The notes under the pieces: model-generated
Database searches by the model: none
Seen by the model: the letters and a program-made list of their open reading frames with translations, nothing else
What the model was told of the DNA's origin: nothing
Assembly (NCBI GenBank): GCA_012813795.1
Contig: GCA_012813795.1_4087.1
Source: a phage
Direction: 5' to 3' (one strand)
DNA length: 64,000 nucleotides
Translations under genes and position numbers: made by a program
Shown: positions 40,710 to 62,946 of the stretch, piece after piece
How the letters are laid out: every line of letters begins with the position of its first letter
How positions within the stretch are numbered: the first letter of the stretch is position 1

Positions 40710-40860
40710 TTGTGAATCTCCTAACTTTGTGGGCCGTCGCACCATTGCCGCCCTACGAGATACATTATTGCAGTACTGCTATACTTTGTCAATAGTTTTT
40801 TATTAATAGTTTTCCACTCCACCAGCAGATAGTTACTCACCGTTATTAACTATATATTTT

Positions 40861-40950
40861 AGATACACCTATGCACCCTGTGGGCTAGTTTTTGTCTATG
40901 CGTATATAATAGCAAAGGGACTGACCGGAGTCAATCCCTTTTTTTATTCT
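40861..40950. repeat. conserved inter-gene boundary element, copy 1
   Basis: ~90-bp unit: GATACAC..GCACCC-N3-GGGC box, TATATAAT, then GGGACTGAC-cgga-GTCAATCCC hairpin and T-run; near-identical copies at 43931, 47245, 49700. Confidence 0.6.
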
Positions 40951-47015: not shown

Positions 47016-47244
47016 TTTATGTTTCCTTCTCAGTGGTTGATGTAAGTATTATACTCGTTTACTTTCTATTGTCAAACTATTTTATCAGGGGAGTTTTTCG
47101 TGTGCCTTACTCCTGGGCTACTTAACGGGGTTACTTGTTTCATTCCCCGTCCTGATGTAAAACATTATACTTGATTCTAAGTACAATGCAAGTACTTTTT
47201 TATAATAGTTTTCAGTACTAGATAATACGTCCACCAGCATATAA

Positions 47245-47335
47245 TAGATACATTTATGCACCCTGTGGGCTGATTTGTTTCTATGCGTATATAATAGCAA
47301 AGGGACTGACCGGAGTCAATCCCTTTTTCAATTAT
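47245..47335. repeat. conserved inter-gene boundary element, copy 3
   Basis: Same unit as 40861..40950. Confidence 0.6.
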
Positions 47336-47337
47336 TT

Positions 47338-47487
47338 TTAAACTTCTTTTGGGTTGCGATATGTGATAGCGTTAGGGTACATTTTCTTTAAGTTATTCCA
47401 TGCCTGGTTAAGACTATAACCGCTGGATCTTACTAGTTGGTGCATACCTTGCCCCAAAAATGTAACTTCGAATAAGTATTCTTTCAT
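47338..47487 (-). CDS. small protein (49 aa), not in ORF track
   Basis: Hand-translated MKEYLFEVTFLGQGMHQLVRSSGYSLNQAWNNLKKMYPNAITYRNPKEV; GAGGTG SD; ATGA overlap with the upstream gene. Confidence 0.45.
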   Translation of the reverse strand: MKEYLFEVTFLGQGMHQLVRSSGYSLNQAWNNLKKMYPNAITYRNPKEV

Positions 47488-48428: not shown

Positions 48429-48572
48429 CTTACATCTTGCGGATAATCTTAACAGTATCTTTCACCGATTTACCGTCTTGCTGGCATTGTTCGATCATTG
48501 CGTATTGTTCTGTGGTCAGATCTTCGCCAGTTTTTTCCAGTACTGCTTCGATGAATGAATCCAGTGCGATCA
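48429..48572 (-). CDS. small protein (47 aa), not in ORF track
   Basis: Hand-translated MIALDSFIEAVLEKTGEDLTTEQYAMIEQCQQDGKSVKDTVKIIRKM; promoter TTGACT-N16-TATAAT upstream, terminator downstream. Confidence 0.45.
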
Positions 48573-48663
48573 TTTTCTTTCTCTCTTAGGTTAAGTTAAC
48601 TACTGTTTATAAAACTTATTATACAGTACTATCGTATAGAGTCAATAGTACTGGTAATATATT

Positions 48664-48843
48664 TTAGCGGTAGTCGTCGTATGCTTTATTCAACTGGCGA
48701 ATGTAACTTTCAAAGGCTTCGTCTACCGTTTCATACTCCAGAACATAATCACCATAGGAAACTACATACATACCTTTTTGATCTTCAAACGTCATGATGA
48801 TAGAATCCAGACCAACGATTTCAGTTTTTGCGATGATAGCCAT
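48664..48843 (-). CDS. hypothetical protein
   Basis: Track ORF trimmed to MAIIAKTEIVG...; extension translates a promoter module repeated four times in the window. Confidence 0.55.
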   Translation of the reverse strand: MAIIAKTEIVGLDSIIMTFEDQKGMYVVSYGDYVLEYETVDEAFESYIRQLNKAYDDYR

Positions 48844-48925
48844 TTTTAATTCCTTAGTAGTGTAGTTGATAAAATCTATTATGCCAGTACTATCAATCTT
48901 TGTCAATAGTACTGTGATAATATTT

Positions 48926-49138
48926 TTAGTTAATGATAGTCAGTGTAAAATTGTAATCCCCTGCCTGGTATAGTATTTTGTCGCCGAACGTACCAACACG
49001 TTTCATATTGCAATAGATACCCATAACATTTTTTACATCTTTGATATTCCGAACGCCTGTGATATCCTTGTTGAAATTTTCATGATCAGAAAATAAAACT
49101 TGTTTTGCATTTTTCAGTACAGTGCAGATATTAGCCAT
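48926..49138 (-). CDS. hypothetical protein
   Basis: Track ORF trimmed to internal Met (MANICTVLKNAKQ). Confidence 0.55.
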   Translation of the reverse strand: MANICTVLKNAKQVLFSDHENFNKDITGVRNIKDVKNVMGIYCNMKRVGTFGDKILYQAGDYNFTLTIIN

Positions 49139-49217
49139 TTTGTTTTCCTTAGTTGTCTTGATAAAATCTATTATGCCAGTACTATCAATCATTGTCAATA
49201 GTACTGTGATAATAATT

Positions 49218-49577
49218 TTAATCCTGTAAACCGTTCGGGAAGAAATCGAGGCGATCATCGTCGTTCTCGCGTTCGGCGTAAGCACTTTCTAACGCCTCGC
49301 CAGTGTGATCATCAGTTAGATAATCATCCTCATAGTTCACATCCACACCAGTGATGAAAAACTGGCTATCGTCTGGATCATTGAAATTAATTTTCTGAAT
49401 GTTTACAATAACTGTATTGATTCCCAGGACACCGCCATCAGCCGTTACAAAGTACTGATAGTTTTCACATCCACCACTATTGAAACCGTAATTGATTTCG
49501 GCCCGACCATCATTTAAACGCAGTGCCTGGGCGATGATTTCGTTTTCAAAGTTAGATTGAGCAATTGAGATAGTCAT
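49218..49577 (-). CDS. hypothetical protein
   Basis: Track ORF trimmed to MTISIAQSNF... Confidence 0.6.
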   Translation of the reverse strand: MTISIAQSNFENEIIAQALRLNDGRAEINYGFNSGGCENYQYFVTADGGVLGINTVIVNIQKINFNDPDDSQFFITGVDVNYEDDYLTDDHTGEALESAYAERENDDDRLDFFPNGLQD

Positions 49578-49699
49578 GATTCGTTTCCTTATTACCAGGG
49601 GAAACCGTTTCCCCTCTCGATGTAAAACATTATACGCCAATTGAGATAGTTTGCAAGTACTTTTTAAAAATAGTTTTCAGTACTCAATACTTATATAAT

Positions 49700-49800
49700 A
49701 GATACACTTATGCACCCGGTGGGCTAGTGAGCTATCTCTCAATGAATATATAATAGCAAAATGGCTGACCGAAGTCAACCACTTTTTTCATTTATTTTTT
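49700..49800. repeat. conserved inter-gene boundary element, copy 4
   Basis: Same unit; the hairpin here shows compensatory substitutions (TGGCTGAC..GTCAACCA) relative to copies 1-3, consistent with selection for the structure. Confidence 0.6.
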
Positions 49801-49926
49801 AGCTTTTAGAATCGCCGCCTTTCGCGTCATGCCTTGCTTGATGTACTCCTTTACTTTCGCTTTACGTGCTTTCGCTTTATCTGCTTTCGTTTTAGGAGTA
49901 CTGTAAATTAAACCGTTAGGATTCAT
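49792..49926 (-). CDS. small Lys-rich basic protein (44 aa), not in ORF track
   Basis: Hand-translated MNPNGLIYSTPKTKADKAKARKAKVKEYIKQGMTRKAAILKAKK; TAAATG junction with the upstream small gene. Confidence 0.4.
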   Translation of the reverse strand: MNPNGLIYSTPKTKADKAKARKAKVKEYIKQGMTRKAAILKAKK

Positions 49927-50016
49927 TTAAATCACCATAAAGAATAGATATGTTACTAACAATACCGCGATCAATGCACCGCCCAGGGCCGAACTGTAAT
50001 AAGCTAATGATTTCAT
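49927..50016 (-). CDS. small hydrophobic peptide (29 aa), not in ORF track
   Basis: Hand-translated MKSLAYYSSALGGALIAVLLVTYLFFMVI, a single predicted TM helix; ATGA overlap with the upstream gene. Confidence 0.35.
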   Translation of the reverse strand: MKSLAYYSSALGGALIAVLLVTYLFFMVI

Positions 50017-50165
50017 TTTTTAGCCTGAAAATAATGTTTAATTTGAGCGGCGGTCAGTGCACAATTACGCAGGAAGTTTTCTGTATAACTGCGGCGAGTA
50101 CTGAAAGAAAATTGACCTTTGCCGTTGCCGATAGTAACATCAAACCGAGCATTATATTGTTTCAT
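50013..50165 (-). CDS. small protein (50 aa), not in ORF track
   Basis: Hand-translated MKQYNARFDVTIGNGKGQFSFSTRRSYTENFLRNCALTAAQIKHYFQAKK; AAGGAGA SD; promoter module upstream. Confidence 0.45.
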   Translation of the reverse strand: MKQYNARFDVTIGNGKGQFSFSTRRSYTENFLRNCALTAAQIKHYFQAKK

Positions 50166-50247
50166 TTTGATTCTCCTTGTATCAGGGGAGAACCATTTCC
50201 CCCCTCTATGTAAAACATTATACAGTACTAAAAACTAATTGCAAGTA

Positions 50248-50394
50248 TTATTTTTTAGATTTACGCAAACTTTCTACCATCTCAGGAGTAAGGCCCGGCG
50301 GGTAGGAAACCACTTCATCAACGAAACGTAAAGGGAATACCCCAGCGAAAGGTGAACATGCTTTCTTGGTATTACTCTTTTTTGATGCTTTCAT
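50248..50394 (-). CDS. small protein (48 aa), not in ORF track
   Basis: Hand-translated codon by codon: MKASKKSNTKKACSPFAGVFPLRFVDEVVSYPPGLTPEMVESLRKSKK; AAGGA SD. Confidence 0.45.
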   Translation of the reverse strand: MKASKKSNTKKACSPFAGVFPLRFVDEVVSYPPGLTPEMVESLRKSKK

Positions 50395-50476
50395 TTCATA
50401 TTCCTTAATTAGTGGGGAGAACCATTTCTCCCCTCTATGTAAAACATTATACAGTACTGAAAACTAATTGCAAGTA

Positions 50477-50719
50477 TTATTTTAAACTTTGTGCGACTAA
50501 TTTCGCACGGTCAATCATATACTGCCATTTTTGGATCTCTTCTGGTAGAAAACGATATTCACCAATAACAATAGTGATACACTTTTCAGCCTGGTCAATG
50601 TATGTAGTATCAATCTCGACTTGAACGGGTACACGTTCGCCGTATTCAGTTCCTGGGATAATACAATCATTATCATAAGTAACAGTAGTTGCAGTGTCTT
50701 TGATTAAAATGGTTTCCAT
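50477..50719 (-). CDS. hypothetical protein
   Basis: Track ORF trimmed to METILIKDTA... Confidence 0.6.
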   Translation of the reverse strand: METILIKDTATTVTYDNDCIIPGTEYGERVPVQVEIDTTYIDQAEKCITIVIGEYRFLPEEIQKWQYMIDRAKLVAQSLK

Positions 50720-51660: not shown

Positions 51661-51984
51661 TTAAAGATCTTTTTTGCGTTTAACATTCTGTACAGTACAA
51701 TGCAACGGGATAGACAAATCATTACACAAACGATAGAGGGAGGTTTCAACAGTATCAAGCCCGTCTACTGATTCCTTTAAGAGATCTAACGCCGTTTGTT
51801 GATATGCATCTTCATAGCCATAAGTAAATGATTCAACCGCCAGATCATTCACACCGTTATCCAGTTCAACGCTTACATGACAAGAATGATAAGTATTGCC
51901 ATATGAATCAGTCCAACGTTTACCGTCAACATTGATTGCACGGATTGCAGCCAGGGAAACGGTGTTAATGATAGTTTTAGCCAT
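51661..51984 (-). CDS. hypothetical protein (paralog of 46057..46380)
   Basis: 107 aa. Confidence 0.6.
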   Translation of the reverse strand: MAKTIINTVSLAAIRAINVDGKRWTDSYGNTYHSCHVSVELDNGVNDLAVESFTYGYEDAYQQTALDLLKESVDGLDTVETSLYRLCNDLSIPLHCTVQNVKRKKDL

Positions 51985-52075
51985 TTTAGTATTCCTTAAA
52001 TTAATATGCGTTGTCTTGATAAAATCTATTATGCCAGTACTATCAAACTATGTCAATAGTACTGTGATAATATTT

Positions 52076-52288
52076 TTACTTACTTTCTTTAGCTGCTTTA
52101 TGTGCTTCCACTGCCATAACCACATCAGCACGAACAAAGTTAGCAACCGTATCAGTGTAATATTTGATTGCATCGTCAACTTCTGCGAACGTCCGATACA
52201 TACCACACCAAGATACTTTATAACCTGCTTTCACTTGTTCCAGCTTAACCAGTGATTTGTTTACTTTGATTTTAGTAATGATAGCCAT
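52076..52288 (-). CDS. hypothetical protein
   Basis: 70-aa minus ORF. Confidence 0.55.
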   Translation of the reverse strand: MAIITKIKVNKSLVKLEQVKAGYKVSWCGMYRTFAEVDDAIKYYTDTVANFVRADVVMAVEAHKAAKESK

Positions 52289-52370
52289 TTTTTGTTTCCT
52301 CTTAGTTGTCTTGATAAAATCTATTATGCCAGTACTATCAAACTATGTCAATAGTACTGTGATAATATTT

Positions 52371-52514
52371 TTACTTACTTTTTGCTTTCTTTGATGCTTC
52401 AACCTGGTCAGCCCACTCTTTACCCCATACTTGAGCATTATAGTGATACTGACAAAGAGCAACGCCCCGCTTTAAACCAGTAATAGATTTTTTACCACAT
52501 TGACAAGTTTTCAT
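52371..52514 (-). CDS. small Cys-containing protein (47 aa), not in ORF track
   Basis: Hand-translated MKTCQCGKKSITGLKRGVALCQYHYNAQVWGKEWADQVEASKKAKSK; GAGGAA SD; promoter module upstream. Confidence 0.45.
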   Translation of the reverse strand: MKTCQCGKKSITGLKRGVALCQYHYNAQVWGKEWADQVEASKKAKSK

Positions 52515-52898: not shown

Positions 52899-53051
52899 TT
52901 AAAGTTTATCAATGATTGATGCCGTTTCATTGATAGTCTTGCCGTGTTTTGCACACGCGATAACTGCTTTAAATTCCTTTGATGACCAATCTTTTTTCCT
53001 GCATACTGACATTACTTGTAAAGTGAAACAATCCAGTTCATAAGTATTCAT
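52899..53051 (-). CDS. small protein (50 aa), not in ORF track
   Basis: Hand-translated MNTYELDCFTLQVMSVCRKKDWSSKEFKAVIACAKHGKTINETASIIDKL; GAGGA SD; promoter TTGCAC-N16-TATAAT. Confidence 0.45.
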   Translation of the reverse strand: MNTYELDCFTLQVMSVCRKKDWSSKEFKAVIACAKHGKTINETASIIDKL

Positions 53052-53220: not shown

Positions 53221-53254
53221 AAAAAAGCCCGTAGAATTGATTCTACGAGCTTTT
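53221..53254. terminator. bidirectional rho-independent terminator
   Basis: GCCCGTAGA..TCTACGAGC hairpin flanked by A6 and T4; 3' of the lipoprotein gene. Confidence 0.55.
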
Positions 53255-53270
53255 AAGCTGGTTGATTGTA

Positions 53271-53678
53271 TTACTTACAGTTATAGACTATGATCCCGAC
53301 CGTCCCGTGTCCAATGACTTCAACGTTATACACTAACTTGCCATTTACACGCTCGCGAGCATAAAAAACGCGTTCATTCTCGGCATCGCGATACGCTGAT
53401 AAAAATTTACGGTTTGGATACGCTTTCAGTACTGGCGACTCAGTGAAAAAGTCACCGATAACTACACTAAAATGATCCCCGTGTTCTGTTAATGGTATAC
53501 TACGCGGATCAGTAAATTGCGGACGGTTATCAATAACAAAATATGGATTCACTGTACAAATCTTATCGCCCATCTCTGAATAAGTTGGCTTAGGATCATT
53601 AGCCTGGATGGATGATTTAGGGGCCGTACATCCCACCGCCAACAGTACACAACTAATAACCGCAATTTTTTTAAACAT
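53271..53678 (-). CDS. lipoprotein (candidate superinfection-exclusion or receptor-blocking factor)
   Basis: 135 aa; signal peptide MFKKIAVISCVLLAVG|C with lipobox LLAVGC. Confidence 0.65.
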   Translation of the reverse strand: MFKKIAVISCVLLAVGCTAPKSSIQANDPKPTYSEMGDKICTVNPYFVIDNRPQFTDPRSIPLTEHGDHFSVVIGDFFTESPVLKAYPNRKFLSAYRDAENERVFYARERVNGKLVYNVEVIGHGTVGIIVYNCK

Positions 53679-62766: not shown

Positions 62767-62946
62767 TTATATAGAGATAAGTTTCAGTACTTCATTATAT
62801 GTGAACATTTCGTCCTGTGCCAATTTAGTACAATTCAGGAGTAATTTTCTTTGTTTTCTTTGCGAACTACAATGATAGCTCATTGAGAAGTAATTGAAGC
62901 CGTATCTATCTTCTGGGTAAATTACGCTTAGGTAGTATTCTAGCAT
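62767..62946 (-). CDS. small Tyr-rich protein (59 aa), not in ORF track; paralog of 62577..62756
   Basis: Hand-translated MLEYYLSVIYPEDRYGFNYFSMSYHC...; same MLEYY N-terminus; frame checked only at start and stop. Confidence 0.4.
   Translation of the reverse strand: MLEYYLSVIYPEDRYGFNYFSMSYHCSSQRKQRKLLLNCTKLAQDEMFTYNEVLKLISI

Follow-up and report, generated by a model that had tools for sequence, protein, structure and literature searches.

Small genes of an Asteriusvirus jumbo coliphage lie in two adjacent, predicted promoter–hairpin cassettes

The locus and its four genes

The subject of this study is a group of four small genes, g48, g50, g29 and g44, on the minus strand of a 64,000-nucleotide (nt) stretch of phage DNA (contig GCA_012813795.1_4087.1 of assembly GCA_012813795.1; hereafter, the window). 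The window belongs to a Rak2-like jumbo coliphage of the genus Asteriusvirus and shares 91–96% DNA identity by megablast with relatives that include PBECO4, 121Q, G17, phAPEC6, SHEFM2K, and A4. In the linear records of these relatives, the homologous locus is found ~9–11 kb from the left end. In vB_Ec-M-J, it falls within the direct terminal repeat (DTR) annotated at 1–21525, and it is present twice in G17, at ~10.3–11.5 kb and 360.3–361.6 kb. Published DTR sizes are 20,993 bp for fEgEco12 and 20,668 bp for Sharanji. Based on the DTR annotation of relatives and the doubled locus in G17, we equate the part of the window at 40.3–59.6 kb with the ~21-kb direct terminal repeat of these phages. The 603-nt stretch that holds the four genes probably represents two adjacent early-gene cassettes within the hyperplastic region of Asteriusvirus (Table 1).

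Table 1. Positions of the four genes and of the predicted regulatory features at the locus, with the distribution of variable alignment columns over codon positions 1/2/3, its binomial P value, and the ratio of nonsynonymous to synonymous polymorphism (pN/pS). aa, amino acids; dG, folding free energy.
Feature	Position	Strand	Details
g48	50248..50394	minus	48 aa, MKASKKSNTKKACSPFAGVFPLRFVDEVVSYPPGLTPEMVESLRKSKK; variable columns 2/3/8, P 0.035, pN/pS 0.36
g50	50013..50165	minus	50 aa, MKQYNARFDVTIGNGKGQFSFSTRRSYTENFLRNCALTAAQIKHYFQAKK; variable columns 4/2/14, P 0.0009, pN/pS 0.11
g29	49927..50016	minus	29 aa, MKSLAYYSSALGGALIAVLLVTYLFFMVI; variable columns 4/3/8, P 0.088, pN/pS 0.20
g44	49792..49926	minus	44 aa, MNPNGLIYSTPKTKADKAKARKAKVKEYIKQGMTRKAAILKAKK; variable columns 10/8/25, P 0.0007, pN/pS 0.29
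All four genes			variable columns 20/16/55, P 1e-7
Cassette A promoter–hairpin	50395..50488	minus	upstream of g48; nhmmer 80.7 bits
Cassette A boxes	-35 TTGCAA 50468-50473, -10 TATAAT 50446-50451	minus	16-nt spacer; promoter scan
Cassette A hairpin	50414-50433	minus	GGGGAGAA-N4-TTCTCCCC; dG -15.2 kcal/mol, z -4.3
Cassette B promoter–hairpin	50163..50257	minus	upstream of g50; nhmmer 80.9 bits
Cassette B boxes	-35 TTGCAA 50239-50244, -10 TATAAT 50217-50222	minus	promoter scan
Cassette B hairpin	50184-50205	minus	dG -14.3 kcal/mol
Intrinsic terminator	49758..49785	minus	stem-loop AAAGTGGTTGAC-TTCG-GTCAGCCATTTT, 7 nt past the g44 stop; scan and fold

When all open reading frames (ORFs) of at least 20 aa are listed at the locus, the four ORFs that an initial annotation had translated by hand are recovered at exactly the same coordinates, and the hand translations contain no frame errors. 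The two junctions that it described are also present: bases 50013–50016 read tcat (ATGA on the minus strand), placing the stop codon of g50 over the start of g29, while bases 49924–49929 read cattta, which is TAAATG on the minus strand and abuts the stop of g29 to the start of g44. All four genes had been described as preceded by a Shine–Dalgarno (SD) sequence. This is the case for g48 (AAGGAA at 50401–50406, 7 nt 5′ of the ATG), g50 (AAGGAG at 50173–50178, 8 nt), and g44 (GGTGA, 5 nt), but g29 has only a weak CAGG, and its translation is therefore probably dependent on coupling through the ATGA overlap with g50. The single transmembrane (TM) helix noted in one product is that of g29, where the best 19-residue Kyte–Doolittle mean is 2.57 (residues 11–29), and the lysine-rich basic peptide is g44, which has 14 lysine and arginine residues out of 44 and an isoelectric point (pI) of 10.6.

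To assess selection on these ORFs, we fetched 13 relatives and used 12, leaving out CMSTMSU, a record flagged UNVERIFIED in which three of the four genes contain frame errors and g29 has lost 2 codons in frame. Each of the four ORFs is intact in every one of the 12 good-quality relatives that carries it (g48 in 9 relatives, g29 in all 12), and the only indels are in-frame, as in g44, which has variants of 44, 45, and 47 aa. In frame, pN/pS ranges from 0.11 to 0.36, versus 0.75–3.2 when the same alignments are read in the two shifted frames. Together with the distribution of variable columns over codon positions (Table 1), these values indicate that the four ORFs are real protein-coding genes under purifying selection.

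It is very improbable that some of these ORFs are instead non-coding spacer between promoters, or that the real gene is an 87-aa ORF on the plus strand (49950..50213). Such a reading could draw on the UE-S1 record (L005 1094-1297), which annotates the opposite-strand coding sequence UES1_246 in the place of g50, on the absence of the 29-aa ORF from several relatives' annotations, and on the substitution bias of g29, which is non-significant by itself. The plus-strand ORF, however, lacks an ATG in 12/12 relatives, for which we reject it as the true gene, and its 3′ end crosses the promoter and hairpin with a variable frame. The minus-strand frames, by comparison, have the low pN/pS values given above against at least 0.75 in the shifted frames of the same strand, the g50 family is kept down to ~47% identity in other phage subfamilies and has a confident structure model, and the TM mini-ORF is syntenic across genera (see Gene products).

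With respect to public records, the initial annotation considered these genes invisible to a 60-aa ORF threshold. This is true at that cut-off but not otherwise, as relatives already list them as hypothetical proteins: SHEFM2K, WPEC5, WPEC3, and fEgEco12 annotate all four, and SD-15_S21 annotates the three that are present there. The 29-aa ORF is annotated in 5/13 records examined and is omitted in G17, 121Q, SP27, EcMJ, A4, and PBECO4. Database entries for g50 with a length of 60 aa (for example, P0001, as well as the 60-aa calls in the ORF map of relatives) start at an ATG within the hairpin loop described below. Sub-60-aa genes in the terminal repeats of jumbo phages are real and selected, yet inconsistently annotated.

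A promoter–hairpin repeat upstream of g48 and g50

An ~85-nt direct repeat precedes both g48 (50401–50485) and g50 (50172–50256) and recurs nearby (families D1/D2). On the coding strand, it consists of an AT-rich stretch containing the stop codon of the upstream gene, followed by GTAC-TTGCAA-16 nt-TATAAT-GTTTTACAT, a hairpin of the form GGGGAGAA-N4-TTCTCCCC, an SD, and the ATG. An upstream 80-aa gene has its stop codon (50477) in the AT-rich part, directly 5′ of the cassette A -35 box, and the g48 stop codon (50248–50250) lies 3 nt 5′ of the cassette B -35 box. Both promoters (50473..50446 and 50244..50217) score 10/12 in a sigma70 consensus scan. The locus can thus be written as cassette A, comprising promoter, hairpin, and g48, and cassette B, comprising promoter, hairpin, g50, g29, g44, and an intrinsic terminator. 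An equivalent terminator site is annotated in G17 (ARNOLD, -14.7), and a paralogue is found at 47299–47326. The only other call made by the terminator scan in this stretch is a weak 5-bp stem within g29 (49982..49967), and no terminator is called between g48 and g50.

A profile made from eight copies of the repeat yields 31 nhmmer matches in the window, 30 of which are on the minus strand, and all of which are confined to 40.3–59.6 kb, a span similar in length to the terminal repeat. The genes downstream of the repeats are 47–144 aa in length where callable with a crude start finder. Among 26 aligned copies, TATAAT is invariant. When each copy is folded individually, the hairpin forms in 26/26 leader-bearing copies with energies of -8.5 to -16.2 kcal/mol, mostly as G4-5...C4-5 stems, and in most copies it begins 9–14 nt past the -10 box. 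No U-tract is found 3′ of the hairpin in any of the 26 copies, and the terminator scan does not call these hairpins. As all 26 copies fold with 22 different stem sequences, the predicted structure is conserved, while the sequence of the stem is not. Consensus folding of a MAFFT alignment of the 26 copies mis-registered the stems and gave a poor covariation signal, and it was replaced by the per-copy folding. With its ~30 sigma70-type promoters, the region looks like one transcribed by host RNA polymerase, in line with its earlier designation as an early region.

In many copies, we also observe an AGTACT palindrome directly 5′ of both the -35 box and the -10 box (AAGTAC-TTGCAA ... AGTACTG-TATAAT, for example at 50446–50480). 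The AGTACT pairs are kept in Vequintavirinae A7_1 and Erwinia Eneladusvirus (L018 701-783; L019 701-749). Because this conservation in the spacer goes beyond what sigma70 recognition needs, AGTACT may be bound by a factor encoded by the phage or the host.

The terminator after g44 (49750–49785) and the paralogous one that follows the 49-aa gene at 47338 (47291–47326), both on the minus strand, each contain a sigma70-like promoter, in which TTGACT lies in the hairpin loop and 3′ arm and is followed after 17 nt by TG-TATTAT. This composite of terminator and promoter has no obvious ORF downstream. A 33-aa ORF (49677..49778) that overlaps it is annotated in SHEFM2K, WPEC3, WPEC5, and SD-15_S21 and looks spurious. 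In addition, a conserved motif, GGGTRCATAARTGTATCTATWAT, preceded by CCCACNGGG, occurs three times on the minus strand (40856–40878, 47241–47263, and 49695–49717) with 0 copies expected by chance. In two of the three cases, the motif is flanked by a terminator on one side and the next cassette promoter on the other, and early promoters of Klebsiella phage K64-1 and Erwinia phage pEa_SNUABM_47 have related sequences upstream of them. This motif may act as a site for a regulator, represent a second class of promoter, or belong to a short RNA.

Cassette arrangements in related phages

To compare the organization of the locus, gene families, repeats, and terminators were mapped in 13 genomes between a conserved 69-aa gene and g50. 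We observe six arrangements, with a copy of the repeat at every junction. In 121Q, there is no cassette between the 69-aa gene and g50, while SD-15_S21 has two repeats with no gene, amounting to an empty double promoter. Seven genomes (SHEFM2K, G17, UE-S1, SP27, fEgEco12, EcMJ, and WPEC3) carry g48 only, and PBECO4 carries the 80-aa gene only. Both genes are present in A4 and WPEC5, where g48 comes before the 80-aa gene, and in the window, where the order is swapped. The module of g50, g29, g44, and the terminator is constant across the mapped genomes, while g48 is absent from 121Q, PBECO4, and SD-15_S21. As judged from these comparisons, g48 is a cassette that has been independently gained, lost, or relocated.

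The whole-cassette differences in presence, absence, and order form a clear pattern, and they would be explained if the repeats serve as portable homology for recombination. Such a cassette organization of the ~20-kb terminal repeat would provide a simple explanation for the variability among phages that are otherwise ~90–95% identical. In these terms, g48 would be a naturally dispensable cassette, and g50 with g29 a conserved module.

Transcription and translation of the two cassettes

The initial annotation had presented the four genes as one operon. Its supporting elements hold in part: the genes are co-directional, g50, g29, and g44 are joined by stop/start overlap or abutment, and no internal terminator is found, but a second full promoter repeat stands between g48 and g50. 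Because this repeat is complete with promoter, hairpin, and SD, the four genes are best described as two predicted promoter–hairpin cassettes rather than an operon with a single promoter. A single SD-equipped operon of four tiny genes driven by one upstream promoter and encoding toxic or regulatory membrane peptides is thus an unlikely reading. Read-through from an upstream promoter would indeed place all four genes on one mRNA, and one of the products is a TM peptide. In addition to the internal repeat, however, this reading is at odds with the relatives, many of which lack g48 or carry it elsewhere while g50-g29-g44 stays constant, and with the products themselves, only 1/4 of which is hydrophobic and for which we see no evidence of toxicity.

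In the two-cassette reading, host sigma70 RNA polymerase would fire both promoters immediately after infection. As no terminator separates g48 from g50, g48 is likely to be co-transcribed with g50 by read-through. Given that the hairpins lack a U-tract, transcripts from cassette A and from promoters further upstream would read through cassette B and stop at the terminator after g44, giving rise to nested mRNAs. The hairpin would be located at the extreme 5′ end of the primary transcript, where it most likely protects the mRNA from 5′-end-dependent decay, and it may also attenuate read-through in the 5′ leader. On these mRNAs, g29 and g44 would be translated by coupling to g50.

A different role for the hairpin is suggested by the promoter-early stem-loop (PeSL) elements of T4-like phages, and it is possible, if somewhat doubtful, that the repeat is a true PeSL-type insulator, whose hairpin would stop or markedly dampen transcription arriving from upstream. 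In that case, g48 would be monocistronic, g50-g29-g44 would form a separate tricistronic unit, and there would be no nested mRNAs. The PeSL stem-loop of RB49/phi1 was reported to lower the expression of a downstream lacZ to the same extent as the rrnB T1 terminator (PMC2839356; PMC4122927), and the hairpins observed here are likewise stable and GC-rich. Their position 3′ of the -10 box, however, means that they are also part of the cassette's own transcript, and canonical terminators with U-tracts stand separately, after g44 and at 47299–47326. The missing U-tract and the absence of any terminator call at the hairpins argue against strong intrinsic termination.

Gene products

The g50 protein is basic (pI 10.2) and matches phrog_7119 over its full length (E = 7.3e-28, residues 1–50 versus profile positions 3–52 of 52), which is the rV5 ORF196 family and has no assigned function. 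By tblastn, g50 is found in 178 phage records, which cover Asteriusvirus, Klebsiella Alcyoneusvirus (~55% identity), ~130 rV5-like Vequintavirinae (~47%), and CR3-like phages, with homologues in rV5, FV3, Murica, CR3, K64-1, and Muenster. Larger searches add little: a profile scan of 1.84 billion representatives gives 15 matches, none of them informative, and adds only a dozen small proteins, a word-indexed search finds only 3 close proteins, and an IMG/VR scan returns only 121Q itself. The family has the signature (N/D)(I/V)TIGNGxG...F...SYT...LTxxQIxxYF. The AlphaFold model of g50 has a predicted local distance difference test (pLDDT) score of 91.7 and is compact, built from four short strands and two short helices, with a further short strand at the C-terminus. 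We considered a homeodomain-like helix-turn-helix for the C-terminus (LTAAQIKHYFQAKK) and rejected it, as the match is not significant and the model does not fit a three-helix bundle with a recognition helix.

Directly downstream, g29 is strongly hydrophobic and fits a single-pass membrane mini-protein. Sequence searches find no relatives of g29 outside Asteriusvirus. In K64-1 (gp441/gp442), Muenster, and a pair of metagenomic contigs (L022/L023) whose version of g50 is 72% identical, the g50 homologue nonetheless has a hydrophobic mini-ORF directly 3′ of it. This mini-ORF is 38 aa in K64-1, where it overlaps the stop codon of the g50 homologue, and 33 aa in the two contigs, where it begins one base past that stop. 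The C-terminus of the metagenomic version, ...AVLAVFLFFTLI, can be compared to ...AVLLVTYLFFMVI in g29 (FLFFTLI versus YLFFMVI). From this shared placement, g50 and a TM mini-protein emerge as a conserved gene pair across Rak2-like genera. Unlike in these phages, no TM mini-ORF follows the g50 homologues of rV5 and CR3, which stand alone or are N-terminally extended. In Muenster, the mini-ORF is unannotated (L020 596-766). With low confidence, we would place g29 in the inner membrane, possibly acting with g50.

The two remaining proteins are more restricted in distribution. By tblastn, g48, a basic soluble protein with a pI of 9.9, occurs only in 25 coliphage Asteriusvirus records, and it has no match in PHROG, Pfam, NCBIfam, or PADLOC. 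The g44 protein matches phrog_29913, also a family with no assigned function (E = 1e-31, residues 1–44 versus profile positions 1–44 of 45), and is confined to Asteriusvirus even in a search of 5.8 billion proteins. Its predicted structure (AlphaFold2, pLDDT 80.8) begins with a disordered N-terminal part and continues as a helix-turn-helix hairpin, the core of which, EYIKQGMTRKAA, is invariant. None of the four proteins has a match above threshold in Pfam, NCBIfam, or PADLOC, and the sub-threshold matches to SAM_SMF (8e-4), T3SS_ATPase_C, aureocin A53, and endonuclease VII were taken as compositional. Matches to families, folds, or defence systems do not point to a function for any of the four; tentatively, they may act early as accessory proteins in host take-over or membrane targeting.

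Other features of the window

The eight additional small ORFs that had been listed elsewhere in the window (2946, 47338, 47484, 48429, 52371, 52899, 62577, and 62767) all exist and have a start codon. An SD-like purine run lies upstream of each except that at 62767, and those at 47484, 52371, and 52899 sit directly 3′ of copies of the cassette repeat. Apparent paralogues of 47 and 50 aa are encoded at 48430–48573 and 52899–53051 and share the C-terminal motif G-K-S/T-x-x-(D/E)-T-x-x-I-I-x-K. A further repeat family of 112 nt (D3; 48664–49285 and 51975–52381) spans the 5′ ends of four genes, two of which share the N-terminal sequence IDSTGIIDFI.

Within the same early region, the minus strand at 53221–53303 has a full-length, sub-threshold match to the Rfam small RNA (sRNA) CyaR/RyeE (37.7 bits versus a gathering threshold of 47; E = 8e-4 over 22 kb). 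The alignment holds over the terminator hairpin and the unstructured 5′ part, but neither the first hairpin nor the CACCUCCUU seed is conserved. This segment may encode a phage-borne CyaR-like or CyaR-derived sRNA.

Discussion

Taken together, our observations favor a reading in which two promoter–hairpin cassettes give rise to nested early mRNAs, the cassettes are shuffled through their repeats, and the small proteins that they encode are under selection. We regard this reading as a whole as likely, with several points weighing against it. That the promoters are active and fire early, that transcription reads through, and that translation is coupled is all read from sequence, and our literature search found no transcript, transcription start site, ribosome, or peptide study of Asteriusvirus or its group. 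If what holds for the RB49/phi1 PeSL stem-loop also holds here, the hairpin could terminate transcription and leave g48 as an insulated, monocistronic unit. Ordinary direct-repeat deletion combined with homologous recombination between phages could explain the cassette differences without any special mobility. Finally, the substitution bias of g29 taken alone is non-significant (P = 0.088), and the support for this gene comes mostly from ORF integrity and synteny.

In a broader context, this early region is an ordinary one from a phage group that is already known, and it would hold little surprise for a phage genomicist. The modest new detail lies in the PeSL-like way in which the Asteriusvirus terminal repeat is organized and in the conserved pairing of g50 with a TM mini-protein.

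Comparison with known systems

PeSLs are mobile regulatory cassettes known from T4-like phages (RB49/phi1, PST/T4, and nt-1/KVP40; Arbiol et al. 2010, PMC2839356; Comeau et al. 2014, PMC4122927). In the proposed model, recombination between repeats deletes, inserts, or replaces ORFans and yields mini-circles, and the RB49/phi1 elements have near-consensus sigma70 boxes and stems of a G-run paired to a C-run (PMC2839356; PMC4122927). The repeat described here is similar in being a composite of ~85–100 nt, with an upstream stop codon in an AT-rich stretch, near-consensus sigma70 boxes, a G-run/C-run stem-loop, an SD, and an ATG. The -35 and -10 boxes of PeSLs are spaced by 16–18 nt, and the spacing is 16 nt in both of our cassettes. 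In both systems, many copies are clustered in a hyperplastic region rich in small ORFans, and close relatives differ in that ORFans bounded by repeats have been inserted, deleted, or replaced.

There are also clear differences. The phage of the window is a Rak2-like jumbo phage rather than a T4-like phage, such that its repeat works like a PeSL but falls outside the described set. The RB49/phi1 stem-loops lie mostly between or over the -35 and -10 boxes and were shown to terminate, whereas the hairpin predicted here is always 3′ of the -10 box in the 5′ leader and has no U-tract (26 copies). The cassettes in our case, moreover, fill a direct terminal repeat. Our literature search found no paper linking PeSLs with Rak2-like phages, and PeSL-type cassette architecture seems to extend beyond the T4-like phages to this group.

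Among jumbo phages, CBB and GAP32 have been reported to contain predicted RpoD-like early promoters with an UP-like element (Buttimer et al. 2017, PMC5259590). As in the window, these are sigma70-type promoters among short hypothetical ORFs, in or near the terminal repeat, in a region read as early and devoted to host take-over. Unlike our analysis, that study lists promoters only, and the hairpin, the whole repeat unit, and the shuffling of cassettes are not described there (PMC5259590).

When our cassettes are compared to morons and to the small early genes of T4 and T5, the likeness is in tiny, non-essential-looking genes that have their own promoter and vary between close relatives. Morons and the early small ORFans of large lytic phages, such as T4's small early genes and the pre-early genes carried in the T5 terminal repeat, are very small, are transcribed from their own promoter by host RNA polymerase, and are lineage-restricted and variable. 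Classical morons are not known to be bounded by conserved repeats. Searches of profile libraries find no homology of the four proteins to characterized early proteins of T4 or T5.

Lastly, the promoter core of our repeat is nearly identical in Vequintavirinae A7_1 and Erwinia Eneladusvirus, where the elements that come after it are a hairpin whose stem is unrelated, then an SD and an ATG. A speculative extension, which we hold to be rather less probable than not, is that the cassette belongs to a PeSL-like family of mobile regulatory elements that spans unrelated lineages of enterobacterial phages (Asteriusvirus, Alcyoneusvirus, Eneladusvirus, and Vequintavirinae) and ferries tiny ORFans such as the g50 family between them, with g50 and the TM mini-protein forming a two-part early effector at the host membrane. 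In such a family, the nearly identical promoter core and the paired AGTACT would be kept, while the 5′-leader hairpin would be free to vary. If this were true, g50 and the TM mini-protein might act in superinfection exclusion or in the inhibition of a membrane-bound host factor.

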